Below the pieces are notes generated by a model. It saw only the letters and a program-made list of their open reading frames with translations, made no database searches and had not been told where the DNA came from. Of a stretch of DNA of 64,000 bases, positions 8,467 to 62,395 are shown piece by piece. Source of the DNA: Pristiophorus japonicus (lineage: Eukaryota); NCBI RefSeq assembly GCF_044704955.1, contig NW_027252026.1, positions 496,001 to 560,000 of the forward strand, written 5' to 3'. The translations under genes and the position numbers were made by a program. How positions within the stretch are numbered: position 1 is the first letter of the stretch; every line of letters starts with the position of its first letter.

Positions 8467-11266
8467 CTACGTAGCTTGGTTGTGCAGGGACCCTCCCCGG
8501 ATGATGAACCGATGATATTGTTAAAAATTCGGAATGAGTGGCAACCCTTCTTGATAGATACGGGAGCCTTCATTTCTTCTGTACAATCAAAGCTGAAACT
8601 CCCCGCCTTCACTGAAACACAGGGACTGTCAGGATTCCTGGGACAAGTCTCTCCATTCCCGATGTCAGAACCGGTTAAAATGGGTTACCAGGAAGAATCG
8701 GTGGAACATCGATTTGTTATCACAACCAATCTGGACTGTAACTTGATGGCTCGAGACCTCCTCTGCAAATTCCAGTTGCATTTGGAGTGTGGAGATGATG
8801 GGATTATTGTAAAACAAGGAACCCTTAAGCGGCAGTATTATACCACTAGAGCCCCTCAGTGGTGGTCTCTGGACCTGCCGCAGGCACCCTATCACGTGAC
8901 CCTAGCATACGATCCCAGTGGAAAGAATCAGGACCTGCAGAACTTTTATCAGGATCACGAAGGGGAAGTGAAGGAAATTCTATTAAGGGCTAGAGTGACT
9001 GGACCGGAAGGGAAGGCAGATTTTGTGGAAATGGACAGCCCCCAACGGTGGCACCACATATTACTCGTGAAGTATTACCTCCCCACCACGCGAAAGATTT
9101 GGGAGTTATGGTGCGCCAGGCTATAGACGAGGCTGACCCTACCAGCCGGGATGTGCAAACTGTAAAACATGGCCAAACAGTCCAATTCCACGGGGACCCC
9201 GAGAAGGTCTTAACGTCTCTGCAGCATCATACTGGCTCTGACATACCTGACTATGTGGATCCTCATGTGTGGGCAGAGGACCCCTCCCAAGTGGGTTATA
9301 CTCCCATTGATCCGATTGAGATCCCAGTGCAGGGCAATGTGGACTGGCCCTCTATCCGACAGTACCCACTGAAATCACAGGCAATACCGAGTATCCACCG
9401 AGCTCTGGAGGCTAGCCGAGTCGAACCAATTTGCCAGTTTCCAGTCCCTAGCACGGCTAAACAAATGCGCCAGTGGTTGGGGATGATCAATTACTGCAGA
9501 TCCTGGATCCCTAATGTTGCCCTGATGACTAAGCACCTCATCCCGTATACAAATAAGGAAGGCAGCTTTGAAATAGAAACCGCAGACGTCCAAGCCTTTA
9601 AGGAACTAAAGACAGCCCTGCTGCAAGCTCCGGCTTTGGTCTGGCCCCTCTATGACCTTTCAACTGTATTGTACAATCCTGAAAGACTGTGCTACCGTTG
9701 TCTTAACACCTCTCACTCCGTAGCTGCCCTCCTGGGCCAGCTGCAGACTCAACACCTTAACATGGCCAGGCAAAGCAGATATGAGATCTACCTACTAAAC
9801 AACCCAAGCTGACCTTTCGGCACTGTACTGCAATTAATCCGGCCTGTTTTCTTACTGAGCCGCCCCAAGATGAGGAAGAACCCAGTCATGATTGTTTATC
9901 TTTAATTCAAGAGGCCACATCAGTCAGGGGAGATTTAGTTGATGTACCAATGGAAGATCCAGACTGTATTATGTATGTTGACGGAAGTTCTTCTATTAAT
10001 CCAGAAGGTACACGAATCTCAGGATACGCCATAGTAAACCAGGAGAATCAGGTCTTGGAATCTGCCGCCTTTGAAACCGCCTATTCTGCCCAACAAGCTG
10101 AACTATTCACCCTCACCCGAGCCTGTATCTTGGCCAAAGACCTCAAAGTCAATATCTATACCGACTCTAGGTATGCCTTTGGGGTGGCCCATGATTTCGG
10201 ACAATTATGGAAAAATAGGGGATTCCTAACCTCACAGGGGAATGAGATATTCCATAAGCAACTAGTATCTGATTTGTTGCAAGCCCTCATGCTCACCAAG
10301 CACATTGCCGTTGTTAAATGTACCGCCCACACCACCGGAAAATCCCCGGTTGATATCGGGAACCACTGTGCTGACAAAGAAGCTAAACAGGCCTCTAGTG
10401 TCCAAAATGATGAGTCAGACTAAAAAATCCTGCGAAGGATAAGTTAGCCTCGGAAAAACCAATGCCAACCATCCAAGATGTTATTAAAGCACAGGAGGAC
10501 GCTCCTGAAAAAGAAAAACTGTTGTGGAAAAATTATGGATGTACTTATGACAATGTTTCTAAACTCTGGACCACTCCCGCGGAACAGACTTGCATGTCTG
10601 ATGAGTTGGCTCTATGGGTTATTGAATGTATGCATTTTTGCTACTCATTGTGGAGCAAGGACCACGAGTGACACACTTTTGGCTACTTGGTGGCATCCTA
10701 GACTCCAGGCGCTCGCCCAGAACATCAGTAGTCGTTGCCTGGTTTGCCAGCAACATAATCCAGGGAAGGGAGTCCCCTGTGATTGGGGTAAAATGCCCCT
10801 ACCCGAAGGTCCCTTTGAGACATTTCAGTTGGACTACATTGAGTTGCAAAAAGTTCAGTGTTACAAATATGTGTTAGTAATAGTAGATGTGTTTAGCAGG
10901 TGGATTGAAGCCTACCCTACCCTGGACAATAAGGCTCAAACTGTTGTTAAGGTGTTAATGAGGGAAATTGTTCCTAGATATGGTATCTCAGCTCGACTGA
11001 TGACCACCTATGTTCTTTCTCTGACTCAGGCTCTGCGACTAGCTCACAACCAGGTTCGAGAGGCTCACCTCGATCTCCCAGTTTTACCCAAATCGTCCCT
11101 CATGGTACCTGGGAAGTATGTCCTGATTAAGAGGTGGATTCGGAAGGGATTGGAGCCACAATGGGAGGGGCCTTTTCAGGTGTTATTCACTACCCCCACT
11201 GCAGCCAAGGTTGAGGGGAGAAGTGCCTGGGTTTACCTGCACCACTGCAAGCTCACCACCCCCTAA
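8467..11266 (+). pseudogene. pol: ERV pro-pol: protease, 2H-like insert, RT with core deleted, RNase H, integrase with partial deletion
   Basis: FLIDTGA and NLMARDLL (protease); IRQYPL jumps directly to thumb WLGMINYCRSWIP with no YxDD; YVDGSS/SAQQAEL/YTDSRY (RNase H); H...CLVC, LDY, GPF (integrase) with the D-35-E segment missing; several frameshifts. Confidence 0.92.
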
Positions 11267-11497: not shown

Positions 11498-12934
11498 ATG
11501 AAACTGTGTCTGTATGCCACAGTCTGTATAATATGACAGTTTCGGCGCATGGGAGGGGAGACAGAGAAGAGAGCTCCATGTAAACACCTTTTTGTACATG
11601 TTTTATGTTTATGCGCAAAATGGGAACTTTTCTTGATGCTGGGTGTGCTCACATATCCCTATACATTCCAAAGGGGGTATTACTTTACGCCCCGTTCCAC
11701 TGACCCTAACTGAGACTGTCAAGTGGCTTCTGAGCCAGACTAGCATGAGCGGAGGGGGGCCATGCAAATACGAGAGAGGAAAGGCGGGTCAAAAGAGGGA
11801 TCACAGAGATCAGGAGGCGTATTATACCGTTACCACATGAACGACCACGGGGAGGTCACCAAGTGGGAGAGTGCTGGAGACCCCATTAGTCAGATGTCCC
11901 AGGGATGGTACCAACCAATCTACGACTGTGGAAAGGAACCCCCATTCTTAGCTCTGACCAATACCTCGGGGATTGGGAGGCCAACCGGAGACATATGTCG
12001 AACCCGAAATGACACCAGTAACAAGGGACATATCATAGGGTACAGCAAATGCCCACACAATCTCAACATCACCACAGGTGCACGAGTCACCATCCTCTCT
12101 CACCTTCCGAGTAAAACAGGTGGAGGTTTGTGGGCCCAGTCCTGGGACCCGGAAGCAATATATCAGAAAGCAGCTTTTAACGGCACGTATTTCGTGTGCG
12201 GTCATAAGGCATATCCTTGGTTGCCCAGGCGATGGACAGGGTCCTGTTATCTGGGATATGTGGTGCCATTTGTGCGGCAAGTACGTACCCTGGTGGAAGC
12301 ACATGCCTCCAGCCGATACAAGCGAGCCATCACCCCCGTCGACAAGTTCTTTGGGGTCATGATGTTCCCAATCAGGATAGGACGTCTCACGGATGAAGTA
12401 CAGAACCTAGAGACGATATTGGAACGGATAGCTAACAATACTGCTGAAGCTCTGGAGGGCATCATAGCTGAAATGGTAGCAATAAGGACCGTAGCATTAC
12501 AAAACCGAATGGCCCTCGATTACCTGTTAGCTGAGAAAGGGGGAACGTGTGCCCTGATAGGATCTGAATGTTGCACTTACATTCCCGATAGTTCAGAAAA
12601 CATAACCAATCTCGCTGATCACATAAGAAGGGAGGTGAAGAAGTTATCCACACCAGCAGAAGGATCTAACTGGTTTGATGGGCTATCAGATGGATCTTGG
12701 AGATCCTATCTAATGCATGGGGCAATTATTCTCATCGTAGTAATAATTACCTGTTGTTTGATTGTTGGTTGCCTTAACCTTTGTTGTAAAGTAATGATGG
12801 CAAGGTTAGTAAACCCTCTTGTGGTCAAGGGCTCCCGAGTTATGATCCAACGAACTAAAGAACTAATCGACACTAACAACAATATGATTCAGGAAATAGA
12901 GTGTGAACGGATGAATGCAATACTCCTAGAATGA
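11498..12934 (+). pseudogene. env: Gamma-type envelope; N-terminus disrupted, 390-aa C-terminal ORF open
   Basis: Signal MKLCLYATVCII; CWVC motif near 11637; furin site RYKR; ISD LQNRMALDYLLAEKGGTC; CX6CC (CALIGSECC); TM AIILIVVIITCCLIVGC. Confidence 0.93.
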
Positions 12935-12970: not shown

Positions 12971-13533
12971 TGTGAATGTTTAAAAATGTATAAAGTCGAG
13001 AAGTTGATAACGTGGGAATTATATATGGACAGTATAAGCTAACAAAGAATTCATGGAGGAATAGCCATGACATCTCAGACTCGAGACTGCGAAATGTTAC
13101 AACACTAACACATATTGAAACAAAACCCACAGCTTGCAGAAAAACCTCAAGGTCTTATTAAATCATGTTATTAACCTGAAACCTGAAACATTAACAGAAG
13201 GTCTTTGTTTAAAATCAGACCATACTTAGGTCGGCTTATGAGTGGACAAAGGGAAAGAGGGATCAAAAGGGATAGGCTGAACTAGGATGTCACTCTAGCC
13301 CTATCTTGTTATCTTTTGCCGAAAATGTATAACCGTCGTCCCTTTACAATGTAACGTCACTTTGTCCGTAGGAAGTGAGTGCGTTCTATCAGAGTTGCAT
13401 TCCTTCTGTCTGATAAGGTCCCCGATCGGGATTTGCTTTTTAAATAAAAGCTTGCTCTGTTTAAAGCACAATCGGTATTTGACTCAGTGATTTCACTGAA
13501 CCAGATTGAGGGAAAAGAATCCAGAAATCAACA
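12971..13533 (+). repeat. 3' LTR of ERV
   Basis: TG...CA; about 8 substitutions (counted by eye) and a 7-bp duplication relative to the 5' LTR. Confidence 0.93.
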
Positions 13534-15365
13534 CACGTATCATACTCGAGGGCACACAGGTGGACAGGCTGTGCCTGTCCTAGTCAGGGTTTTGGTTGGG
13601 AGGGGGCAGATGGGATTTCGGTACCAATGGCGGTGGCTCCTTTCCAGGGCCATCTAACATGGCTCGGAGCGCAGTTAAAAAGGTCTCAAACGAGTGGGGA
13701 GGGACTGGCTTATCTGTCCCGGTCTTTTGGGCAGGGGCTGGAGAATTCTTTCCTGCGCTATTCTGCCAAGGATTTCTTCAATCCTTTCTCCAGTGCCCAC
13801 TCTTTCCACACCCAAAGCAGGTACGTTTTGTATCGGAGGGGTTGCCCCCTTGTGGTGCCATTCCCTCTTGTCTTGGTCAGGTCAGATTTCGTGAACCTTT
13901 CCCTTTTGTGGGGGCTCTTCTGTCCCTCTGCCGTTTCTGTAAGCTAGGGTCAGCTGCCTAAGCACTCTCTATTCTGTGGCTTGGGGGTCTCTGGGGTTGA
14001 ACCAGGCCTCAGCCTTGGTTCTTATTCTGGGTAAACTGTTAGATACTAGGCTTCGGAGCCAGTGGGCTAACTTGTCCGGGTTGAGGTCCCCTCCACAGGC
14101 CACAGTCGGTCTGCGAAAGCCTGTGGGGTTTCCCCTGTGAGCTGCACCGTTTACTCTGGAGAAGGGACTCACTTCATGCAGCCCAGAGCTTCTAAAATGT
14201 CTTTCTGGATGGCAGCAAGTGTTTTCTGTCCTCTTTTGCTCTCAGTAGAGAGGGACTGGTACAGTTTGCTGTCGAGAGATAGGAGAAGCATCTTTGCCAT
14301 CTCGGCCTCATCGCACCCATTAATATCCCCTGCCTGTTCCACCTCCACAAAGTGAACTGAGGGGTCTCCCTTTGGAGTGAGCTTTCCCAGGTGGCTTATC
14401 ATAGTCCTAAGCTGGTGGGGAGTGTGGGGGACCACAAACTGACTTTCCAGGGGCCCTGGACCCCCGGCAAGGGTGGGCGGGCCAAACCTCTGTTGCCGGA
14501 CCAGGCACATTGGCCCTGGTTCTGGCTCTCCCTGTTCTGGCTCGCCTCCCTCTCCTCCCTGCTGCCAGACCGAGCTGAAACTCGGTGCCACAGGTGCTGG
14601 TGGTTCACTATCCCTGTTCACCCTGCAACTCGTTCGCCCCTCCTGCTGCTTCACCGGTGTAGTCACCGGTGCTACAGGTAGTGGCCAGGTCGTTTCTTCC
14701 TTCTCTTCCAGGTTTACCTGGGGCGTACCCGGGCTTATTAAACATACCGTGCCTTTTGCTTTGGACAGAGCAAGGGTTAAACTCTTGATTTGCTGCTGGC
14801 AGGGACGGTGGTCTCCCGATTCAAACCCATTAGTGCTAGCTACTTTATACGCTGCTTGCACATCTTTTAAATTTTCCTGGAGCTCTTTTACTTGTAGGGT
14901 GAGGCGAGTGCTTTCCTCCCTCAGTGACTTTTCATTACTTTTGGCCTCGGTAACCTGAAATTGAAAATAGTCCTGACTGTTCTTAAACCTTTCCATTAGC
15001 TGGGTCTTTTCCTGTTTTAGCTTACGGAGTTCTTCTGCAATAGCCCTTTCCTGATAGTTCTCTGCACATTCCCATAACTCTGCCTGTAGTGTCTCATTGG
15101 TTTTATCCAGGAGTTGGACCTGTCGCTGCAGACAGACGAATCAGATTGCCTTCTCTACTGATTCTTTGTGATCCTTGCTTGCTGTCCACTGGGCTGCAGC
15201 GTCGGCTGGACGCTCAGCGCACAACAGACCAAGCACCCATTCCTTAGTGACATTCACCTTCTTGTACACATAGGAGGAAATCCTCTCTTCCATCTTGGTT
15301 CTTTCCCCCAAACCAGCACTCTCCGCATCACAGCCCTTGTACCAGAGTCCTGCCGCGGTCGCCAT
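13534..15365 (-). pseudogene. gag: gag of a second LTR element (lokiretrovirus-like), coiled-coil N-terminus, truncated at the start of protease
   Basis: MATAAGLWYKG..., a long E/K/Q-rich heptad region, capsid-like MLLLSLDSKLY, zinc knuckle CFGCGKSGHWRKD*, then TGACTAG and LCALEYDT at the ERV junction. Confidence 0.8.
15345..15364 (-). promoter_or_regulatory. Primer binding site, tRNA-Arg(TCG)
   Basis: Plus strand GAGTCCTGCCGCGGTCGCCA equals the 3' end of vertebrate tRNA-Arg(TCG) plus CCA; 3 nt from the LTR end. Confidence 0.88.
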
Positions 15366-15367
15366 TT

Positions 15368-18300
15368 TGTAAGGGGTGGTCCCGGGCTTCAGGTTCACCT
15401 CTGATCGACTTGAGTGGTTCGAATGGCTCCCACTCCCTTGGGTTCTACACTCTGGGTTTATTTGGGGAATGTGACAAAATGCAAAGTACAACTGGTTTGG
15501 TGCAAAGAACTTTGACTTTATTACAGACAAGAAAGTATAAGGTCAGCCTTATAATCACTGTAATAAAGAACAATATATTACACATTCAGAAACATAGAAA
15601 CATAGAAAATAGGTGCAGGAGCAGGCCATTCAGCCCTTCTAGCCTGCACCGCCATTCAATGAGTTCATGGCTGAACATGAAACTTCAGTACCCCCTTCCT
15701 GCTTTCTCGCCATACCCCTTGATCCCCCAAGTAGTAAGGACTTCATCTAACTCCCTTTTGAATATATTTAGTGAATTGGCCTCAACTACTTTCTGTGGTC
15801 GAGAATTCCACAGGTTCACCACTCTCTGGGTGAAGAAGTTTCTCCTCATCTCGGTCCTAAATGGCTTACCCCTTATCCTCAGACTGTGACCCCTGGTTCT
15901 GGACTTCCCCAACATTGGGAACATTCTTCCTGCATCTAACCTGTCTAAACCCGTCAGAATTTTAAACGTTTCTATGAGGTCCCCTCTCATTCTTCTGAAC
16001 TCCAGTGAATACAAGCCCAGTTGATCCAGTCTTTCTTGATAGGTCAGTCCCACCATCCCGGGAATCAGTCTGGTGAATCTTCGCTGCACTCCCTCAATAG
16101 CAAGAATGTCCTTCCTCAAGTTAGGAGACCAAAACTGTACACAATACTCCAGGTGTGGCCTCACCAAGGCCCTGTACAACTGTAGCAACACCTCCCTGCC
16201 CCTGTACTCAAATCCCCTCGCTATGAAGGCCAACATGCCATTTGCTTTCTTAACCGCCTGCTGTACCTGCATGCTAACCTTCAATGACTGATGTACCATG
16301 ACACCCAGGTCTCGTTGCACCTTCCCTTTTCCTAATCTGTCACCATTCAGATAATAGTCTGTCTCTCTGTTTTTACCACCAAAGTGGATAACCTCACATT
16401 TATCCACATTATACTTCATCTGCCATGCATTTGCCCACTCACCTAACCTATCCAAGTCACTCTGCAGCCTCATAGCATCCTCCTCGCAGCTCACACTGCC
16501 ACCCAACTTAGTGTCATCCGCAAATTTGGAGATACTACATTTAATCCCCTCGTCTAAATCATTAATGTACAATGTAAACAGCTGGGGCCCCAGCACAGAA
16601 TCTTGCGGTACCCCACTAGTCACTGCCTGCCATTCTGAAAAATACCCATTTACTCCGACTCTTTGCTTCCTGTCTGACAACCAGTTCTCAATCCATGTCA
16701 GCACACTACCCCCAATCCCATGTGCTTTAACTTTGCACATTAATCTCTTGTGTGGGACCTTGTCGAAAGCCTTCTGAAAATCCAAATATACCACATCAAC
16801 TGGTTCTCCTTTGTCCACTTTACTGGAAACATCCTCAAAAAATTCCAGAAGATTTGTCAAGCATGATTTCCCTTTCACAAATCCATGCTGACTTGGACCT
16901 ATCATGTCACCATTTTCCAAATGCGCTGCTATGACATCCTTAATAATTGATTCCATCATCTTACCCACTACTGAGGTCAGGCTGACCGGTCTATAATTCC
17001 GTTTTCTCTCTCCCTCCTTTTTTAAAAGGTGGGGTTACATTGGCTACCCTCCACTCGATAGGAACTGATCCAGAGTCAATGGAATGTTGGAAAATGACTG
17101 TCAATGCATCCGTTATTTCCAAGGCCACCTCCTTAAGTACTCTGGGATGCAGTCCATCAGGCCCTGGGGATTTATCGGCCTTCAATCCCATCAATTTCCC
17201 CAACACAATTTCCCGACTAATAAAGATTTCCCTCAGGTCCTCCTCCTTACTAGACCCTCTGATCCCTTTTATATCCGGAAGGTTGTTTGTGTCCTCCTTA
17301 GTGAATACCGAACCAAAGTACTTGTTCAATTGGTCTGCCATTTCTTTGTTCCCCGTTCCGACTTCCCCTGATTCTGACTGCAGGGGACCTACGTTTGTCT
17401 TTACTAACCTTTTCTCTTTACATACCGATAGAAACTTTTGCAATCCGCCTTAATGTTCCCTGCAAGTTTCTTCTCGTACTCAATTTTCCCTGCCCTAATC
17501 AAACCCTTTGTCCTCCTCTGCTGAGTTCTAAATTTCTCCCAGTCCCCGGGTTCACTGCTATTTCTGGCCAATTTGTATGCCACTTCCTTGGCTTTAATAC
17601 TATCCCTGATTTCCCTAGATAGCCACGGTTGAGCCACCTTCCCTTTTTTATTTTTACGCCAGACAGGAATGTACAATTGTTGTAGTTCATCCATGCGGTC
17701 TCTAAATGTCTGCCATTGCCCATCCACAGTCAACCCCTTAAGTATCATTCGCCAATCTATCCTAGCCAATTCACGCCTCATACCTTCAAAGTTACCCTTC
17801 TTTAAGTTCTGGACCATGGTCTCTGAATTAACTGTTTCATTCTCCATCCTAATGCAGAATTCCACCATATTATGGTCACTCTTCCCCAAGGGGCCTCGCA
17901 CAATGAGATTGCTAATTAATCCTCTCTCATTACACAACACCCAGTCTAAGATGGCCTCTCCCCTAGTTGGTTCCTCGACATATTGGTCTAGAAAACCATC
18001 CCTTATGCACTCCAGGAAATCCTCCTCCACCGTATTGCTTCCAGTTTGGCTCGCCCAATCTATGTGCATATTAAAGTCAACTATTATAACTGCTACACCT
18101 TTATTGCACGCACCCCTAATTTCCTGTTTGATGCCCTCCCCAACATCACTACTACTGTTTGGAGGTCTGTACACAGCTCCCACTAACGTTTTTTGCCCTT
18201 TGGTGTTCTGCAGCTCTACCCATATAGATTCCACATCATCCAAGCTAATGTCTTTCCTAACTATTGCATTAATCTCCTCTTTAACCAGCAATGCTACCCC

Positions 18301-20342
18301 ACCTCCTTTTCCTTTTATTCTATCCTTCCTGAATGTTGAATACCCCTGGATGTTGAGTTCCCAGCCCTGATCATCCTGGAGCCACGTCTCCGTAATCCCA
18401 ATCACATCATATTTGTGAACGTCTATTTGCACAGTTAATTCATCCAACTTATTGCGGATACTCCTTGCATTAAGACACAAAGCCTTCAGGCTTGTTTTTT
18501 TAACACCCTTTGTCCTTTTAGAATTTTGCTGTACAGTGGCCCTTTTTGTTCTTTGCCTTGGGTTTCTCTGCCCTCCACTTTTCCTCATCTCCTTTCTGTC
18601 TTTTGCTTTTGCCTCCTTTTTGTCTCCCTCTGTCTCCCTGCATTGGTTCCCATCCCCCTGCCATATTAGTTTAACTCCTCTCCAACAGCACTAGCAAACA
18701 CTCCCCCTAGGACATTGGTTCCGGTCCTGCCCAGGTGCAGACCATCCGGTTTGTACTGGTCCCACCTCCCCCAGAACCGGTTCTAATGCCCCAGGAATTT
18801 GAATCCCTCCCTGCTGCACCACTGCTCAAGCCACGTATTCATCGGCGCTATCCTGCGATTCCTACTCTGACTAGCACGTGGCACTGGTAGCAATCCCGAG
18901 ATTACTACTTTTGAGGTCCTACTTTTTAATTTAGCTCCTAGCTCCTTAAATTCGTTTCGTAGGACCTCATCCCTTTTTTTACCTATGTCGTTGGTACCAA
19001 TGTGCACCACGACAACTGGCTGTTCTCCCTCCCATTTCAGAATGTCCATTCAAAGATGGTTACAGTAAAAATTACACCTCCCACCTCCTAGTACCTAAGC
19101 CTAGCTAGGTTAGACTCCAGGGCAGGCAGGGACTATGCTTACCAATCCTTTCTGGTCAGTTAGCGGTAGTTCACGATTTTGGTGTTCGTTGAGTTCTGTA
19201 GGTTCTGCTTGTCATACCCCGAACATCGGAGAGGACTTCTTACTGCACAATCTTCAGTTGGGCTGAGTCCGCTGATGTGGAAAGGCACGTTTTGGATTTG
19301 TGGGGTAAGTACCCATTTTCTATCATTAGAAGTAGGTTTTTACAGTACTTTAGGTAATGTTTTATCCATTGGTAGCTCAGGAACAGCTTGTAGAGTGGAA
19401 ACTTTCGATTCTTCGGTTTCTTTCCGTTGGAGTTTTGTTTCGAGTTTGGTCGATCTCGGTGGCTTTTATTGGTACCACGTTGGCTGTGGTCAGTTGCTGC
19501 CACGATGGTGATCTTCTTCCTTCCCTTTTGGACTTCAGGACTTCGAGGCTGGAGAAGTTAGTTTTCAACTGTTGCGTTGCTCTCTCTCCCTTCTTGATGG
19601 CACAGTCGTAGTATGGTATACACGCATAGCATACTCAGTGTCTCCTGAGGTAGTAGCAACCTAGCCTCTGTTAAAACAGGGGCCAGTTATATGGTTTGAG
19701 CTGTCCTAATCTTCATGCCAAATAAGTTCAGATTTCTTTGTTTGAATTTGGCAGGCTTGACATTACTTTGTAATATTTTGGCGGGCTCGTTAAAAGTTTG
19801 CATGTCTTGGGTGGGTTGCTGTTCGAAATCTGTTTCCTGATGGAAAATATTGGCTTGGTAATCGAAATGTCCTTTTGTGCTTGGTTTTTGCATACAGGCT
19901 GTAGTGGGCCCTTTTGTTTTTATGCGTGCCGAAGATGGCTTTTCTCAATTCGGTTGGATTGCTGGCCATCTCTGAGTTAGTGTTGTAATATTAATCTCTC
20001 TTCTGGAGAAGGGTTTTCGAATATCTATTTCTCCAGACACTTTACGTTAGCCCCAACACCCAGACAGTTCCAATAATCAAGTTGGTTCCTTCAGTTCTTT
20101 GAGGCCTGCCCACAGACTTGAATTTGTCTTGTAAAAGTCCAAAATTCGATTAAAGTTCGTGGTTTCTTCCATAAGCACTTTAGGATTTCAACTTTCCGGT
20201 AGATAGTCCCAAATTAAATTTCCTTTCCAATGAGCCCAAACACTGGCCGGTGGGGGGGAAGGGGGGGGGAGTTGGGGGGAGGGGGGGTCGGGGGAGGGGG
20301 GGTGGTGGGGCGGGGCGGTTTCCAGTGAATTTTGACCTTTCA
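15368..20342 (-). repeat. Long 5' LTR (~1.5 kb) of the second element, split by a LINE
   Basis: Termini TGAAAGG (20342) and CCTTACA (15368); AATAAA near 15517-15522; pieces 15368-15588 and 19047-20342 flank the LINE. Confidence 0.7.
15589..19046 (-). mobile_element. CR1/HER1-type LINE, near full length (ORF1 3' end and ORF2 EN-RT, frameshifted)
   Basis: SGNH-like ORF1 VVVHIGTND; endonuclease CLNARS/ITETW/SDH; 427-aa RT fragment; (catagaaa)n tail; candidate TSD CATTCA at 15583-15588 and 19047-19052. Confidence 0.96.
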
Positions 20343-23646: not shown

Positions 23647-23820
23647 CACTATCAATCACTAGAAATGCCCTTCATTTGTCCTCAACAGATACAAATGTGA
23701 TTAGATGATTGGCAAGGGTCAAAAAGGCCCTTAAAATCACTCAGAGATTGATTCTCCTCACAAACACTTGAAGCAGCCTTTCAGTACAGATCCTCCGACT
23801 GTCGAAAAGGCGTCGGTAGT

Positions 23821-25918
23821 GCCGAGTACTGCCGAGTATTGCCGAGTATTGCCGAGTATTGCCGAGTATTGCCGAGTATTGCCGAGTATTGCCGAGTACT
23901 GCCGAGTATTGCCGAGTACTGCCGAGTATTGCCGAGTGCTGCCGAGTATTGCCGAGTATTGCCGAGTACTGCCGAGTACTGCCGAGTATTGCCGAGTATT
24001 GCCGAGTATTGCCGAGTACTGCCGAGTATTGCCGAGTACTGCCGAGTATTGCCGAGTATTGCCGAGTATTGCCGAGTATTGCCGAGTATTTCCGAGTACT
24101 GCCGAGTATTGCCGAGTATTGCCGAGTATTGCCGAGTACTGCCGAGTACTGCCGAGTATTGCCGAGTATTGCCGAGTATTGCCGAGTGCTGCCGAGTATT
24201 GCCGAGTACTGCCGAGTATTGCCGAGTACTGCCGAGTATTGCCAAGTACTGCAGAGTACTGCCGAGTACTGCCGAGTATTGCCGAGTATTGCCGAGTATT
24301 GCCGAGTACTGCCGAGTATTGCCGAGTACTGCCGAGTACTGCCGAGTACTGCCGAGTATTGCCGAGTATTGCCGAGTATTGCAGAGTATTGCCGAGTATT
24401 GCCGAGTACTGCCGAGTACTGCCGAGTATTGCCGAGTATTGCCGAGTATTGCCGAGTACTGCAGAGTACTGCCGAGTACTGCCGAGTATTGCCGAGTATT
24501 GCCGAGTATTGCCGAGTATTGCCGAGTATTGCCGAGTACTGCCGAGTACTGCCGAGTATTGCCGAGTATTGCCGAGTACTGCCGAGTACTGCCGAGTATT
24601 GCCGAGTATTGCCGAGTACTGCCGAGTATTGCCGAGTACTGCCGAGTATTGCCGAGTACTGCCGAGTACTGCCGAGTACTGCCGAGTACTGCCGAGTACT
24701 GCAGAGTACTGCCGAGTATTGCCGAGTACTGCCGAGTACTGCCGAGTATTGCCGAGTACTGCCGAGTACTGCCGAGTATTGCCGAGTACTGCCGAGTATT
24801 GCCGAGTACTGCCGAGTACTGCCGAGTATTGCCGAGTACTGCCGAGTATTGCAGAGTACTGCCGAGTACTGCCGAGTATTGCCGAGTACTGCCGAGTATT
24901 GCAGAGTACTGCCGAGTACTGCCGAGTACTGCCGAGTATTGCCGAGTACTGCCGAGTACTGCCGAGTATTGCCGAGTATTGCCGAGTACTGCCGAGTATT
25001 GCCGAGTATTGCCGAGTATTGCCGAGTATTGCCGAGTACTGCCGAGTATTGCCGAGTATTGCCGAGTACTGCCGAGTACTGCCGAGTACTGCCGAGTATT
25101 GCCGAGTACTGCCGAGTATTGCCGAGTACTGCCGAGTATTGCAGAGTACTGCCGAGTATTGCCGAGTACTGCCGAGTACTGCCGAGTATTGCCGAGTACT
25201 GCCGAGTATTGCCGAGTACTGCCGAGTATTGCAGAGTACTGCCGAGTATTGCCGAGTACTGCCGAGTACTTCCGAGTATTGCCGAGTACTGCCGAGTATT
25301 GCAGAGTACTGCCGAGTACTGCCGAGTATTGCCGAGTACTGCCGAGTACTGCAGAGTACTGCCGAGTACTGCCGAGTACTGCCGAGTATTGCCGAGTACT
25401 GCCGAGTATTTCCGAGTACTGCCGAGTATTGCCGAGTACTGCCGAGTATTGCCGAGTACTGCCGACTACTGCCGAGTACTGCCGAGTATTTCCGAGTACT
25501 GCCGAGTACTGCCGAGTACTGCCGAGTATTTCCGAGTACTGCCGAGTCTTGCCGAGTACTGCCGAGTATTTCCGAGTACTGCCGAGTATTGCCGAGTACT
25601 GCCGAGTATTGCCGAGTATTGCCGAGTACTGCAGAGTACTGCCGAGTACTGCCGAGTACTGCCGAGTATTGCCGAGTACTGCCGAGTATTTCCGAGTACT
25701 GCCGAGTATTGCCGAGTACTGCCGAGTATTGCCGAGTACTGCCGACTACTGCCGAGTACTGCCGAGTATTTCCGAGTACTGCCGAGTACTGCCGAGTATT
25801 TCCGAGTACTGCCGAGTCTTGCCGAGTACTGCCGAGTATTTCCGAGTACTGCCGAGTATTGCCGAGTACTGCCGAGTATTGCCGAGTATTGCCGAGTACT
25901 GCCGAGTATTGCCGAGTA
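23821..25918 (+). repeat. Decamer satellite (GCCGAGTAYT)n, about 210 copies
   Basis: Directly visible 10-bp period with C/T variants and rare GCAG, TCCG, GACT and GTCTT variants. Confidence 0.99.
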
Positions 25919-26228
25919 GCACCGACTTAAGGTCAGGTGAGTGCAGCTTTTTTTCAGCGACTTTTTCGACCAGCGACCATTTCGGCGAAGTGTGGGCAAA
26001 ATGCCGGAAGTTGCGGTGGCGATAAATGGGCGATAATCGGGCACAAGTTTCCAGTTTCAGCACTATTCTCGGCCTGGCACGCAGATGACTTCATATATTT
26101 TTTAAACTTAAGCCGGGCGATGCAGCACATTCATGTGTGCCAAAAGTTTGGCCGGCGATAAATGGGCGATAATCGGGTGCTAGTTTCCACTTTCTGGCAA
26201 AAATGGGCAATAGCCTGTATCTCAGCAT

Positions 26229-56762: not shown

Positions 56763-57504
56763 CACCTTTGTGCACAGATCATAGCAAGGAACAAAGGGGG
56801 AGGGTTGAGTTCTTCGATGGGGAGTTTGCAGACTGTGGATTGTCCTTGGGCTGAGCTACTGACTGGGTGAACTCTCTGAGCCACACACCAGGCAGGGCCC
56901 AGAGACAATCCTCAGTCTGCACATACAAACCTACAAAAGGACCATCAGTAGATAAAGACTCTCAGACAGCATAACCTCGCCTGCTCCTGTCCCACCTCCA
57001 GTAACGCTATCTCTTGGAACAAACAAAGGAATGTGGCCAATTCAGGAAAAAAACCTCTGGGCAATTGCTCTACAACTCCCTGAGGCTCCAGGGAGAGCAT
57101 TGCTGCTCCAGTAACATCACAATCTAAAGTGGCCTCTCACTCCCCGTAACTGCCAGTGTCCGCTCAGAAACTTTTCAACTTCCCCTGTAAAATAAATGAG
57201 TGTAGTGCCCCAACACTCACCCTCTGTTACTCACCACATGCTGCACACGTTTGCTCCAGAGGGTGATGACTCTGTGACAAGCCATGGACTCATACAGCAC
57301 GGAAGGAGGCTATTCAGCCCATTATGTCTATGCTGGACCTTTGCACGAGCCACACAAAAGTCCCATTCCCCTGCTCCCTCCCCACAGTCCCACAAATGGC
57401 TCCCAACCACCCGCTGCCCTCCCAGCACACATCTAATTCTCTCCTTGTTCCCTTCCCACAGCCCTGTAAGTGTCTCCCACACCCCCTGCCCTCTCAGCTG
57501 GAAG

Positions 57505-58541
57505 TGGTTTCCCTTCGGTGTTTTCGAAGCATCCCCACTTTACAATAGTTCTAACGCTGGGAATTATTACTGTACCGAACAGATGGATGAGTCAGGGATG
57601 GGTACCTTGGTCCGAGTACTGGCAATGCTTTTATTAAAGTTAAAACACACACTTGCACCCAGTACAAACACACCCTGGTAGTGTAATAAAAACAAACGCA
57701 GTACAACACACAGTCTGGCCTGTCTAAACCTACTGCGAAGTACCCACGTCTAAAACACCTCCCCTGAAAATCCCTAAGATATTGGTTGGGAGAACGCACG
57801 ATACCCCCTCACACCGTGACTGTGATCTTAAAAGATGTGTGTGCAGAAATGATGCTCACCGATTCGCTGGCTTCCTCACTGCTTCTTCCGATGAAAAGGT
57901 GTCTCTTCTGGTTTCTTCTCTCCATCCCACATGGAGGGTTGGATTCTTGTCGAGGCGAAACAGCGATGCAAGAGAGAGAGAGAGTGACCACACGGCCTCT
58001 TTTATATCCCAGTACTGTCTGTCCTTTCAGGCTGAATAAAGTTTGTTTCAAGGCAAGACTTCCTGTGGGTGTGTCTTCTGCTTTTAGCTCAATAAAGTTT
58101 CTCCCTTTGTTTCGAGGTTTCCTGTTTTTCCAGTGATGGGTTTTGCTTCCGAGCAGTCTGGGGCTTAATGGCTTTCTATTGTTCTGGTATCTCATCCAGG
58201 TAATGGCTCCATCACGGATCAGTTCACTTGACCAGTTCACATTGCTGAACAAAACACAGTCCATTTGCTCATCACCTGCAATAAATTGCCTTAGCGTGGC
58301 CATTGTCTTCCCAGAACCCCTGCCCATCATTCTAAGTCCATCATAGCCGCACCTGGGCCCCTTCCAGCTTTTTCTGCGGTGAGAAAAACATTAAAACGCA
58401 AATCCTTGGGGATTAAAACGCAATGTCCAGATCCTTGGGGATTCGTTGCTTACAGTCCTTACAGTCTCCCCTATGATATTTCAAGAGTCTTCGAGAACAT
58501 ATCAACGTCCGCTGGTGACCAAGCCTCGTGGTTCCCAACCA
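57505..58541 (-). repeat. 3' LTR (~1.04 kb) of a lokiretrovirus-like element
   Basis: Inverted termini TGGTT...AACCA; preceded by TTTTAAAAGTAAAAAGGGATAGGA (PPT-like); TATAAAA near 58000-58006; AATAAA near 57630. Confidence 0.7.
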
Positions 58542-58637: not shown

Positions 58638-59539
58638 TCACGGTTCGTTAACTGCAGCCTCCCATCGACTCCGGAGCATCTGACTTCTCTTTTTACAAGA
58701 AATACACAACAGGTATATCACAATCAAACACTGTACAATGACGAGAGCATGTGAGCATATCTGGATCCACGGAGGAACCTCCACACTTATACCAAGGTCC
58801 CACCAGGACGGGGCATTTATCCCTTTAATTCTTTCCCCTGTGTTCCGGTTCGTCTGTTCCAGCGTGAAATAATGTTTTTGGGGTTAGCTCGATGGCCTTT
58901 AATAACGTTGTTAGGTGTCCCGGCTCAAAAGGAATCTGATACCTGAACTGGGTAATGTACTGTTGCAGGTTCGGGATCGTGTTGTTTACCGTAATGTGTA
59001 CCGTGGATGGTTCTGGGATCGGAATAATACCTTCCTGTGCCACTTGAACTTCGGCGTGGGGTTTGAAGCAGAAAGTGCTGTCATTGCCGGACACCAAGTG
59101 TCCCGGTGCATTCGATACCGGTCCACACTCGTGGTTACACAGTATGTCCCGTCGCCCACATGTGCTACCTGAGGTGGGACGTGGCTCTAGGCCCTCACCT
59201 CCATGGGGCAATTGATGAGCTCGTGCCTCTTGGATTCAAACCCACACTCTGGCCGATCGAATGCGTTCAAATGCTGGGGACACAATATGACGTGTGCACC
59301 CCTGCTCTGGCACCCCTTGAATCAGAGTATTTCGTTGAAGTCGACCCCAGCCACCCTGGCCTCCTTCCCTCGTGGAAGTAGGCTGTCATCCCATCCGTGT
59401 CCCCTGTCCGACCCCCCTGTGTGAGGGTGGGTCTGTTCCCCCCAGTACATCCGTAGAGGAAGGACAACTCGGTGTCCCCCCTCCTGCTGTACCCTGTTCC
59501 GGCCAAGCTCCAAAGAACGATTACCAGGGTTGTCTCCAT
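58638..59539 (-). pseudogene. env: Non-gamma, Cys-rich envelope glycoprotein (lokiretrovirus/F-protein-like), internally deleted
   Basis: Acceptor tcttcacag| before the signal peptide METTLVIVLWSLAGTG; GCQSRGAHVILCPQH...ECGF...NCPMEV...TYCVTT...FCFKP; SWWD followed by TM ALVIVQCLIVIYLLCISC and KKR; no ISD or CX6CC. Confidence 0.75.
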
Positions 59540-59701
59540 CTTTCTCTCGGCTTCCTGTGAAGATACAAAGAAACAACAACCTTTTTGTGAGAGGGTATAC
59601 CTCCACAGGTCTGGCTTCATCAAAAGACACTTTGTAAAACAGGAAACTGAGAGGGACACTATATACACCGCCACCCGTCTCTGGGTGGCCCCGCTAGGTC
59701 T

Positions 59702-61830
59702 CTACGACCCGGGCCTTTTATGGTTCCTTGGTGGTGTGTAAGGAGGCGACCACAGCGTTCTCTGCCGTGGGATCTTGCTATTCCTCCTAACCACCACCAC
59801 CACGGGCTCTTCACTGTCCCAAACTATGGGAGGAAGGCCTGCGTCCACCATGCTGTTTATAGCGCCTTGGTGCTTCTTTCTGTTTCTCGCTCTTTCCCCC
59901 GGGTTAAACAACTTGCACTGGTTCACATGGAACCACTTTGTGCGCTTCGGAAGCTTAACCGCGTACACCATGGGACTGGCCTTATCTACGATGCTGTAGG
60001 GTCCCATGTACAAAGGCTCACACGTGTCCACCTGAACGTAATTGTGGACCATGACCTGATCCCCGACCTTCCATCGTGGGTTCTCCGGGACTCGAGCACC
60101 AACTGATTGTCCAGTGCTGCTTCCCCATGTTGCTAGCAGCTTGACAATGAATCTGTTTCAAGTGTTCGAACAGATCCTTGACAAACTTGTCCCGGTTTAG
60201 CTCTCTCACCTGCCCCGCTGTGAGAACCAGCGCCAGAACATGGGTGGGGGGGCACATGACCCGACCAGTCATCAGCTCATATGGGGAATACCCTGTGCTT
60301 CTGGAGAGGCTGGCTCGGACCCCCATCAGGTCAAACGGCAGGACTTCAAACCACTTTTTCGGGGACTGTCCTGTTTCCTTCTGCAGCCTTTCTTTGGTGG
60401 TCCGATTAAGTCGCTCCACAACCCCCGATGACTGTGGGTTGTGAGCCACATGCCATTTCCCTTCTATCCCGAGCCATTTCAAGATAGCCTGCATGACCTG
60501 CCCTGTGAAGTGGCTCCCTTGGTCGGACTCCACGATCTGTGGCAGTCCACACCTAGAGAACACTTCCCTCACCAAGATCCTTGCCGGCGCCAACGCCGTG
60601 GCTGATCAGCTAGGGAAGACTTCAACCCACTTCGAGAAAACTTCCACTAGGACCAAACAGTACTTGTAACCACCCTTTGTGGTGGGCAATGGTCCGATGT
60701 AATCGACCTGTACTGACTGCCGTGGTCTCTCTGCCCTTCTCGTGTGTCCCATGGGAACCTTTCCTTTCTGGGGATCGAGGTTGTTTGCTGAGCACACCAC
60801 CAGTCTGCGCAAAAATCGCTGACATCCTCCCTCAGTTGTGGCCACCACCCTGCCTGTTCTACCCTCTGCCAGGTAGTCTCCAGCCCTGGGTGTCCCGCTC
60901 TTGGGCCCCCGTGGGCTATCTGGAGGAATTCCCTCTGGTGCTGTTCTGGAACCACCCACTGATCTCCCCTGAAAAGCATTCCCTCCTTTAAAGTAATGGC
61001 CACTACCCCGAACGGGCCTTCTACCTTTTCTCCCCTAGCCAGCTGCTCCAGGACAACTTTGAGGACGGGATCCTGTGTCTGGACTTTCCTCAAGTCCGGA
61101 TCCAATGCTACCCCTTCACTCCCTTGTGTTCCCCCTTTGTCCTGGATCGCTGCTACTGGGCTGGACCCATATGGGTCCCAAAACTCTCCTGTTTTGGCTC
61201 CCTCCTTGGCTAACCCGTCAGCCTTTTGCTTGCCTTCCCCTCTGGGCTCTGTCTTGGAATGGGCCTTTACTTTATGAGTGTTCTCGAAGATCCTTTGTAA
61301 CAGTGGTTTGGTTGCTAAGAGCTTCCCGTCTGCGGATGTGAAACCGCGACGAGACCAGATGGCCAAGTGTTCGGTGCACGAATTGCATGTGAACGTGGAA
61401 TCCGAGCAGATGGTGTATGGGGTCGGGAACTCGCCGGCGTGGGTAACGACAGACACCACTGCCGACAGTTCGACGTGCTGGGCTCTCAGGGTGCTCGGGA
61501 GTTTAATGGCCCTTGCAATGCCTGCCGTCAGGTCATAAATCCCACACCCGGTGAAACACTCCCCTGCTACCACCGAACTGGATCTGTCGACATATATTTC
61601 ACGGCCCGTGGGGTGTAACCCGGCCTGAAATCCTATGTCTACGTCCCATATTCCCTCTACCATACACTTATGGGCCGCCCCTGCATCGATCATGTTAGCT
61701 GCCAGCTTGGGCTCACACAGGCCTTACACTCTCAGATGCATTTGTGAGAGCGATAAAATCCAGCGAGCAATGTGAGCACTGCTCACCGTGCCGTCCTTTA
61801 TCCTCCCATCTAATAACGTCTGAGTCGGGG
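59702..61830 (-). pseudogene. pol: Retroviral-type pol 3' half: tether, RNase H, integrase
   Basis: IARWILSL (tether); IYVD/AQHVEL/CSDS/KVKAH (RNase H); H..H..C, VDYIGPLP, ESDQGSHF, PQSSGVVERLN, GPY (integrase). Confidence 0.9.
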
Positions 61831-62395
61831 GTACCTGCCCTGGGAGTGTTTGATGGGACAGTGTAGAGGGAGCTTTACTCTGTATCTAATCCTGTGCTGT
61901 ACCTGCCCTGGGAGTGTTTGATGGGACAGTGTAGAGGGAGCTTTACTCTGTATCTAACCCCCTGTACCTGCCCTGGGAGTGTTTGATGGGACAGTGTAGA
62001 GGGAGCTTTACTCTGTATCTAACCCCCTGTACCTGCCCTGGGAGTGTTTAATGGGACAGTGTAGAGGGAGCTTTACTCTGTATCTAACCCCCTGTACCTG
62101 CCCTGGGAGTGTTTAATGGGACAGTGTAGAGGGAGCTTTACTCTGTATCTAACCCGTGCTGTACCTGCCCTGGGAGTGTTTGATGGGACAGTGTAGAGGG
62201 AGCTTTACTCTGTATCTAACCCCGTGCTGTACCTGCCCTGGGAGTGTTTGATGGGACAGTGTAGAGGGAGCTTTACTCTGTATCTAATCCGTGCTGTACC
62301 TGCCCTGGGTCTGTTTGATGGGACAGTGTCGAAGTAGCTTTTCTCTGTATCTAAACCCCTGTACATGCCCTGGGAGTGTTTCATGGGACAGAGTA
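61831..62395 (+). repeat. ~60-bp minisatellite, about 9 copies
   Basis: Unit gtacctgccctgggagtgtttgatgggacagtgtagagggagctttactctgtatctaaccc(gtgct). Confidence 0.97.

Follow-up and report, generated by a model that had tools for sequence, protein, structure and literature searches.

A 3' provirus remnant in Pristiophorus japonicus from a retrovirus family with a predicted paramyxovirus-F-type envelope

F-type envelope proteins (Env) have already been published for lokiretroviruses, foamy viruses and invertebrate errantiviruses (PMC7947760, PMC11468914, bioRxiv 2023.10.26.564294), and the accessible part of the errantivirus paper defers its vertebrate analysis to another report. Wang & Han (PMC7947760, PMC9040795) set out four scenarios for the origin of the retroviral Env and, in the available text, later preferred the view that lokiretroviruses and canonical retroviruses each gained Env independently, one reason being that the two Envs showed no similarity. 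Foamy Env has since been proved to be F-like, as reported in the accessible part of PMC11468914. In the sections available of PMC7947760, lokiretroviruses were found in none of six chondrichthyan genomes, and the reverse transcriptase (RT) alignment reads PFG[YL]xNSPA and [RCV][CT]PFG in the lokiretrovirus (Loki) rows and LPQGFH in SnRV. Shark members of the SnRV-like/class III endogenous retroviruses (ERVs) are known as CmiERV lineage I (Han 2015, PMC4422223), and the accessible part of that paper holds no Env fold. Foamy viruses are described in the available portion of PMC5210030 as having a Gag without Cys-His box, a primer-binding site (PBS) for tRNA-Lys (or Asn/Thr) and GGGTG at the border of polypurine tract (PPT) and LTR. 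Our literature search found no paper describing an F-type Env in vertebrate ERVs that are neither foamy nor Loki, and an earlier description may exist.

We analysed a window of 64,000 nucleotides from P. japonicus, located on contig C1414 of the genome (5.92 Gb, 4318 contigs). It is likely that the 3' half of a dead provirus is preserved in the window and that this provirus belongs to a multi-copy ERV family, the RT of which lies deep within the canonical Retroviridae and outside the lokiretroviruses, and the Env of which is predicted to be of the paramyxovirus-F type and not of the gamma or beta type. The proviral half runs on the minus strand from 61829 to 57499 and comprises the tether end, RNase H, integrase with GPY, an env remnant, the PPT and the 3' LTR. 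A reading of the sequence alone (below, the sequence-only reading) had described tether, RNase H and integrase-GPY followed by a spliced, signal-peptide-bearing glycoprotein with a Cys cluster, SWWD and a transmembrane (TM) helix. All of these were seen on the minus strand, the splicing being predicted from the acceptor only, and the element reaches past the interval 58638-61830 first assigned to it, as the PPT and the 3' LTR (58463-57499) also belong.

Of the tether, the window retains the C-terminal end, a degenerate first RNase H of about 35 codons (61724-61829, minus strand like all features of the element), all sequence further 5' being missing. The second, retroviral-type RNase H follows at 61196-61600 (PF00075, E 1.5e-10). 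The integrase (59705-60952), read in three frames with matches to PF17921, PF00665 and PF24626, has an HHCC zinc finger (PF17921, E 1.3e-11), a DDE core (rve, in pieces) and a GPY/SH3-type C-terminal domain with MGPYS. It is interrupted by frameshifts and one stop, and Pol as a whole carries stops and frameshifts. A non-viral flank, an unstranded 65-bp satellite in 8.5 copies (61831-62395), adjoins the truncated 5' end and takes the place of all sequence 5' of 61829; at this junction sister copies run on into the tether (PF17919, E 1.7e-21) and RT (PF00078, E 7.6e-29).

The predicted env splice acceptor, a pyrimidine tract plus CAG known from the sequence only, lies at 59555-59586, with the CAG ending at 59555, 15 nt before the env ATG. 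The exact 20-nt pattern across it was found at 16 loci, several of which overlap or are duplicates. The env 5' remnant (59325-59539) starts with the ATG at 59539 and a hydrophobic N-terminus, and covers the signal peptide and the start of an N-terminal Trp/Cys-rich head, with 84% identity to the open head frame of L014 and 43% to the skate protein P0011. The junction of an internal env deletion of about 1.41 kb, measured against sister copies, lies at 59319-59325. Beyond it the frameshifted env 3' remnant (58638-59321) holds Cys-rich beta domains, a membrane-proximal helix, WWD, a TM helix and a short tail; it reads APSWWD and then the TM helix (Kyte-Doolittle 19-mer mean 2.44), which ends at 58638. 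This remnant aligns to the shark/frog homologues P0017 and P0031 and to residues 371-566 of the sister frame L033:3751-5454. The PPT (58464-58474) is a purine run right before the TG of the LTR, likewise in L032, and the 965-bp TG...CA LTR (57499-58463) matches both LTRs of paired copies (L031/L032 94%, L035/L036 95%); a second LTR copy was not found within the 64-kb window. With about 300 env codons left, the window copy is a doubly truncated fossil, and no working fusogen or Pol can be encoded by it.

Searching the genome with the env-remnant DNA, we scored 40 of 2590 candidates; three align over the full length of the query, the other 37 over no more than the 720 bases at its 3' end. Among the first 12 stretches, five contain an extra 1.4 kb or so between window positions 59325 and 59319, one (L019) has the deletion in common with the window and six have no upstream match. 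At nine of ten further dispersed places both sides of the junction are matched, with a gap of 1.37-1.43 kb in seven and a longer one in two. The sequence-only reading had suspected an internally deleted env and had proposed to look for copies with the lost segment. Such copies were found (12 with a gap of 1.37-1.43 kb, two with a longer one), and the deletion is real and recent because sister copies keep the segment that is missing from the window. As read in the sister copies, this segment holds most of the head, the F2-like part, the furin site RQRR, a fusion-peptide-like stretch and a long helix. The window remnant corresponds to residues 371-566 of the Env model described below, and therefore the Cys-rich domains, membrane-proximal helix and TM have been kept, and the cleavage site and fusion peptide, also reported as not visible by the earlier reading, have been lost.

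The copies L014, L015, L017 and L020, the last of which keeps the RT, have the window's flank beyond the LTR in common and are therefore duplicates of one insertion. The satellite junction of the window recurs in L017 and L019, and L017 still holds the env segment. The shared 3' flank shows a single integration that was copied many times together with its flank; the 5' half would then have been lost beside the satellite, and the 1.41-kb env deletion would have followed in the sub-lineage that contains the window. We infer this order because L017 combines the satellite junction with an intact env segment. LTR pairs of independent insertions differ by a K2P of 0.062 and 0.040, corresponding to about 9-14 My at a mammalian rate and to 91-140 My with the rate that the available text of PMC4422223 assumes for sharks. 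The env tail repeats at a spacing of about 260-270 kb on the small contigs C1414, C3782, C3248, C2932 and C2277, and occurs on C3 in clusters at about 40-50-kb spacing; from this regularity it follows that many of the copies arose when a few insertions were duplicated segmentally or in tandem.

The furin site and the small-residue hydrophobic stretch that follows it are present in L014, L015, L017, L018 and L020, and R-X-K/R-R stands at the equivalent place in the homologues P0001, P0011, P0016, P0017 and P0031. Neither CX6CC nor an ISD-like motif was found in the family's frames, in agreement with what had been noted for the window, and both were found in the positive control, the gamma-type env of the window at 11744-12931. 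In the homologue P0045 the CX6CC pattern is matched at residue 643, in the region of the TM end. Comparison of the family Env with the window gamma env by hhalign gave a probability of 4%.

The fold check against F proteins that had been proposed was done on a natural, unaltered sister frame of 568 codons (L033:3751-5454), modelled by AlphaFold with a 36-row alignment. The model has a pLDDT of 65.6 and a pTM of 0.49, with 70-95 in the core and less than 50 in the fusion-peptide region; the folded frame reads RQSR, which is not the canonical furin motif. Foldseek against the PDB ranked hPIV3 F (1ztm, E 2.8e-10) on top, then RSV F (E 8.3e-9) and the F proteins of Langya virus and NDV, with 224 matches at E<=0.001 and TM-scores of 0.3-0.4; foamy Env (8rm1) took rank 36 with an E of 5.6e-6. 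VIA-align gave a Z of 12.8 to 1ztm (rmsd 16.9, 334 residues aligned) and of 11.6 to 1g5g (rmsd 5.6, 322 residues), and the best 50 matches listed were all paramyxo- or pneumovirus F. A BFVD search with the Env model returned glycoproteins of invertebrate RNA viruses as the best matches (E 8e-13), and also baculovirus F. At the sequence level, an F signal (PF00523, E 0.0051) was seen in one of the 36 aligned members, no F protein was found in the PDB by phmmer or by a profile search with the family Env, and the window env pieces had no match in Pfam. The model predicts that the family Env is a paramyxovirus-F-type fusion protein with an F domain I-III core. In the same BFVD search the Env of walleye epidermal hyperplasia virus 1 (WEHV1) matches the F-like model at rank 23 (E 1.3e-6), which hints that the Env of fish epsilonretroviruses may also be F-type.

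A phmmer search with the Env among 1.84 billion proteins gave 37 matches, in which no recognisable Loki Env and no SnRV Env was present. Thirty of them were looked up; of the 25 with a species name, 22 come from sharks or a skate, three from frogs and none from a teleost or lamprey. The nearest relatives are from sharks (74% and 67% identity to Pristiophorus proteins), distant ones have 18-36% identity, and several are full length (677-749 aa). The P0045 cluster from Mantella aurantiaca has 16 members, most of those listed being 677 aa long; it represents a frog family that expanded recently and whose F-type Env is full length. The N-terminal head of about 200 residues, modelled on its own, gave no fold (nine rows, pLDDT 32.5). 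Ig-like signs on the heads come down to a V-set match at E 0.045 (P0034) and a database label (P0017), and an Atlas look-up with P0017 returned one uninformative cluster at 0.82. The heads of P0016, P0017, P0029, P0031 and P0034 vary in length and make-up in front of a conserved core, and this comparison suggests that N-terminal heads may be exchangeable.

The sequence-only reading had called the provirus lokiretrovirus-like, and this did not hold; that lineage is defined by its RT. For the RT tree, 70 rows were taken from 125 Pols after thinning of near-duplicates, P0069 being excluded as too short. Eleven rows were labelled Loki and P0072 SnRV by motifs matching the Wang & Han alignment, and the gamma and Gypsy labels are also motif-based and not database names. 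The family row came from L020, the duplicate of the window insertion, and all trees were built without foamy, class II or named ERV-L rows; a scan of viral contigs for reference RTs had none confirmed. The family fell inside the canonical Retroviridae clade (100/99), with the Loki rows separate (100/100), and a tree constrained to unite the two is worse by 44.4 log units and is rejected (AU p 1.1e-4). A 41-row tree of RT plus tether under a mixture model agrees, with P0067 placed differently between the two. The family was grouped with coelacanth and frog ERVs in the RT tree (82/94), a grouping that is unsettled in the RT+tether tree, and the SnRV row joins class I rows (97/97, 99/99) and is not sister to the family.

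The RNase H and integrase trees that had been proposed placed the window domains outside the Loki clade as well. The window RNase H (48/51 rows) lies outside a 100/100 Loki clade, and the window integrase (54/60 rows) outside the Loki clade, Gypsy (92/97) and gamma-like rows (98/93), deep nodes being poorly supported in both trees. The expectation that the integrase is neither Gypsy nor gamma was thus borne out; integrase alone is poorly resolved, and therefore this comparison could not expose a wrong Loki call. The family RT reads LPQGFH. The best solved structures for RT and integrase by phmmer are foamy proteins, with 128 bits for the RT against 113 for the MLV type.

The Gag of family copies has a coiled coil, a capsid and a CCHC knuckle (PF00098, E 2e-5), and protease, RT and tether were also seen. 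For L047 the PBS was matched, as its complement, to a tRNA-Arg(TCG) gene in the genome, and three other primer sites seen differ from that of L047. SnRV is likewise primed by tRNA-Arg. The PPT/LTR border reads GGGGAGAC followed by TG and has no GGGTG. RT and integrase lie outside the Metaviridae, and the family has a second RNase H where Ty3/Gypsy elements have a single one, which argues against Ty3/Gypsy membership; the RT clade together with the order LTR-gag-pro-pol-env-LTR, a PBS and a PPT places the family in the canonical Retroviridae. It is probably best filed, on these sequence features, as a deep-branching class III-like retrovirus similar to clade Huo as that clade is outlined in the accessible part of PMC6001957.

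Related and unrelated elements were also observed. A sibling family found at ten places (L050-L059) has 72% Pol DNA identity to the window element, is younger, and carries open Pol frames of 777-1305 codons and 1.5-kb LTRs that are 93-98% identical in all four pairs examined. No env was found between pol and the 3' LTR in these copies and F-type Env was matched in none of the ten, so that the family looks like an env-less offshoot spreading intracellularly. A gamma-type env beside the sibling Pol of L057 was considered as an env swap and rejected, as it sits outside the 3' LTR of that element. The gag-bearing element at 13500-20300 (minus strand; 13.5-20.3 kb), which the sequence-only reading had set apart, is indeed a separate element, yet a relative. 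Its Gag has an N-terminal coiled coil and is broken up by LINE pieces; with 40-56% identity to the family Gag in the main matches and 69-72% DNA identity to sibling gag and LTR, it is by sequence a third related subfamily. The gamma-type env of the window (11744-12934, plus strand; TLV_coat, E 7e-14, with ISD and CX6CC) belongs to another ERV on the opposite strand and is accompanied by an RNase H-like stretch at 9971-10396. At 23656-26000 there is a long array of a 10-bp unit with at least 211 overlapping copies.

Several other readings of the element were weighed. Were it a lokiretrovirus, that lineage would be extended to cartilaginous fish. Tether and second RNase H, the F-like Env with an RXXR site and the coiled coil ahead of the Gag capsid would fit; tether and second RNase H are common to all retroviruses and are therefore not diagnostic. 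The window integrase scores against six Loki rows (102-119 bits) close to its scores against several frog and coelacanth rows (105-131 bits), and the top RT matches are annotated 'NYNRIN-like', Loki integrase being reported near CGIN1 in the available part of PMC7947760. Kinship drawn from these names was rejected, as the RT tree puts the rows in question on the canonical-retrovirus side. With RT (by the AU test) and RNase H outside the Loki clade, an RT motif unlike the Loki rows in the published part of the Wang & Han alignment and no teleost or lamprey among the named Env homologues, we regard a lokiretrovirus as very improbable. A very deep foamy-like (clade Tu) virus, for which an F-type Env would be expected, is unlikely in our estimate. 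It draws on the foamy proteins that best match RT and integrase in the PDB, on a foamy Env that is itself F-like (PMC11468914, as far as accessible) and is matched by the model, and on trees that had no foamy rows. Paramyxovirus F nevertheless outranks foamy Env (rank 1 against 36), the RT motifs are nearer to SnRV than to foamy rows, and the Cys-His box in Gag, the tRNA-Arg PBS and the missing GGGTG are opposite to what the accessible text of PMC5210030 gives for foamy viruses and fish foamy-like ERVs.

The same anatomy could have another origin if a class III-like Pol lineage acquired an F-type env late, with a lokiretrovirus or negative-strand RNA virus as the donor, and env would then be uninformative on the retroviral ancestor. 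Env/Pol swapping is frequent in anamniote ERVs according to the available part of bioRxiv 10.1101/2021.11.23.469661, the heads differ among homologues, and the best BFVD matches are the invertebrate RNA-virus glycoproteins. Against this, the Env homologues across sharks, a skate and frogs have diverged deeply, with 18-36% identity among the distant ones, and this points to an old association, and no protein of a Loki host is among the named matches; we see late recombination as a serious candidate that stays well short of an even chance. That the downstream frame comes from the host, or is a chance sequence, and was taken up by an LTR element is barely conceivable: the missing Pfam match of the window remnant would agree with it, but the position between integrase and PPT/LTR is fixed in independent insertions, and signal peptide, furin site, TM, F-like fold and intact homologues of 677-749 aa speak for a viral env.

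If, as we prefer, the family is canonical and deep-branching and its Env is of the F type, its ancestral genome would have been LTR-gag(CCHC)-pro-RT-tether-RNase H-IN ahead of env, with reverse transcription primed by tRNA-Arg and an env mRNA likely spliced at the acceptor at 59555. The Env of about 770 codons would comprise a signal peptide, the N-terminal head of about 200 residues, which is likely receptor-binding, an F2-like part and a C-terminal TM anchor. By analogy with paramyxovirus F, it would be cleaved by furin at RQRR, expose an N-terminal fusion peptide and refold through heptad repeats. We tentatively propose, with a chance we put only somewhat below even, that the F-type Env is the ancestral retroviral Env and that, beside lokiretroviruses and foamy viruses, a third, orthoretrovirus-like lineage with CCHC Gag, spliced env and Arg primer kept it in sharks, skates and frogs, with exchangeable heads in front. 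If true, the gamma- and beta-type Envs would be later replacements, which runs against the view favoured in print that Env was gained independently. The present family would add to the retroviruses with a known F-type Env, an F-like env would be no marker for lokiretroviruses, and surveys baited only with gamma or beta Env would miss the F-type class. With an F-type Env on a deep Pol that is neither foamy nor Loki, and with full-length homologues in sharks and frogs, Env-Pol congruence at the base of the Retroviridae would also become directly testable.

Compared with known systems, the family is like the lokiretroviruses in its dual RNase H and in an Env that is related to F and has a signal peptide, a site of the RXKR type, a fusion peptide, a coiled coil and a TM, as these are given in the accessible part of Wang & Han 2021 (PMC7947760), and differs in that its RT, RNase H and integrase lie outside the Loki clade and its Env has the additional head. 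With clade Huo and class III ERVs it shares the position of a deep-branching canonical retrovirus (Xu et al. 2018, PMC6001957, in the text available). Its RT motifs (LDISNGFWSI, LPQGFH) are closest to those of SnRV among named viruses, while family and SnRV row are not sisters in the trees. Foamy viruses resemble it in the F-like fusion core (Fernandez et al. 2024, PMC11468914, in the portion available) and in the best PDB matches of RT and integrase; judged against the accessible description in PMC5210030, the family differs by its Cys-His box, Arg primer, PPT/LTR junction without GGGTG and N-terminal signal peptide. Its receptor-binding candidate would stand in front of the F core and not be inserted in it as in foamy viruses. 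With paramyxo- and pneumovirus F, baculovirus F and the F-type errantivirus Env (PMC13524379 / bioRxiv 2023.10.26.564294, as accessible) the family has in common the predicted fold of residues 74-477 and a furin site followed by a hydrophobic N-terminus; it differs from those F proteins in sequence, at 8-15% identity, and in its carrier, a vertebrate retrovirus with tether and RNase H and not a member of the Mononegavirales or Gypsy.
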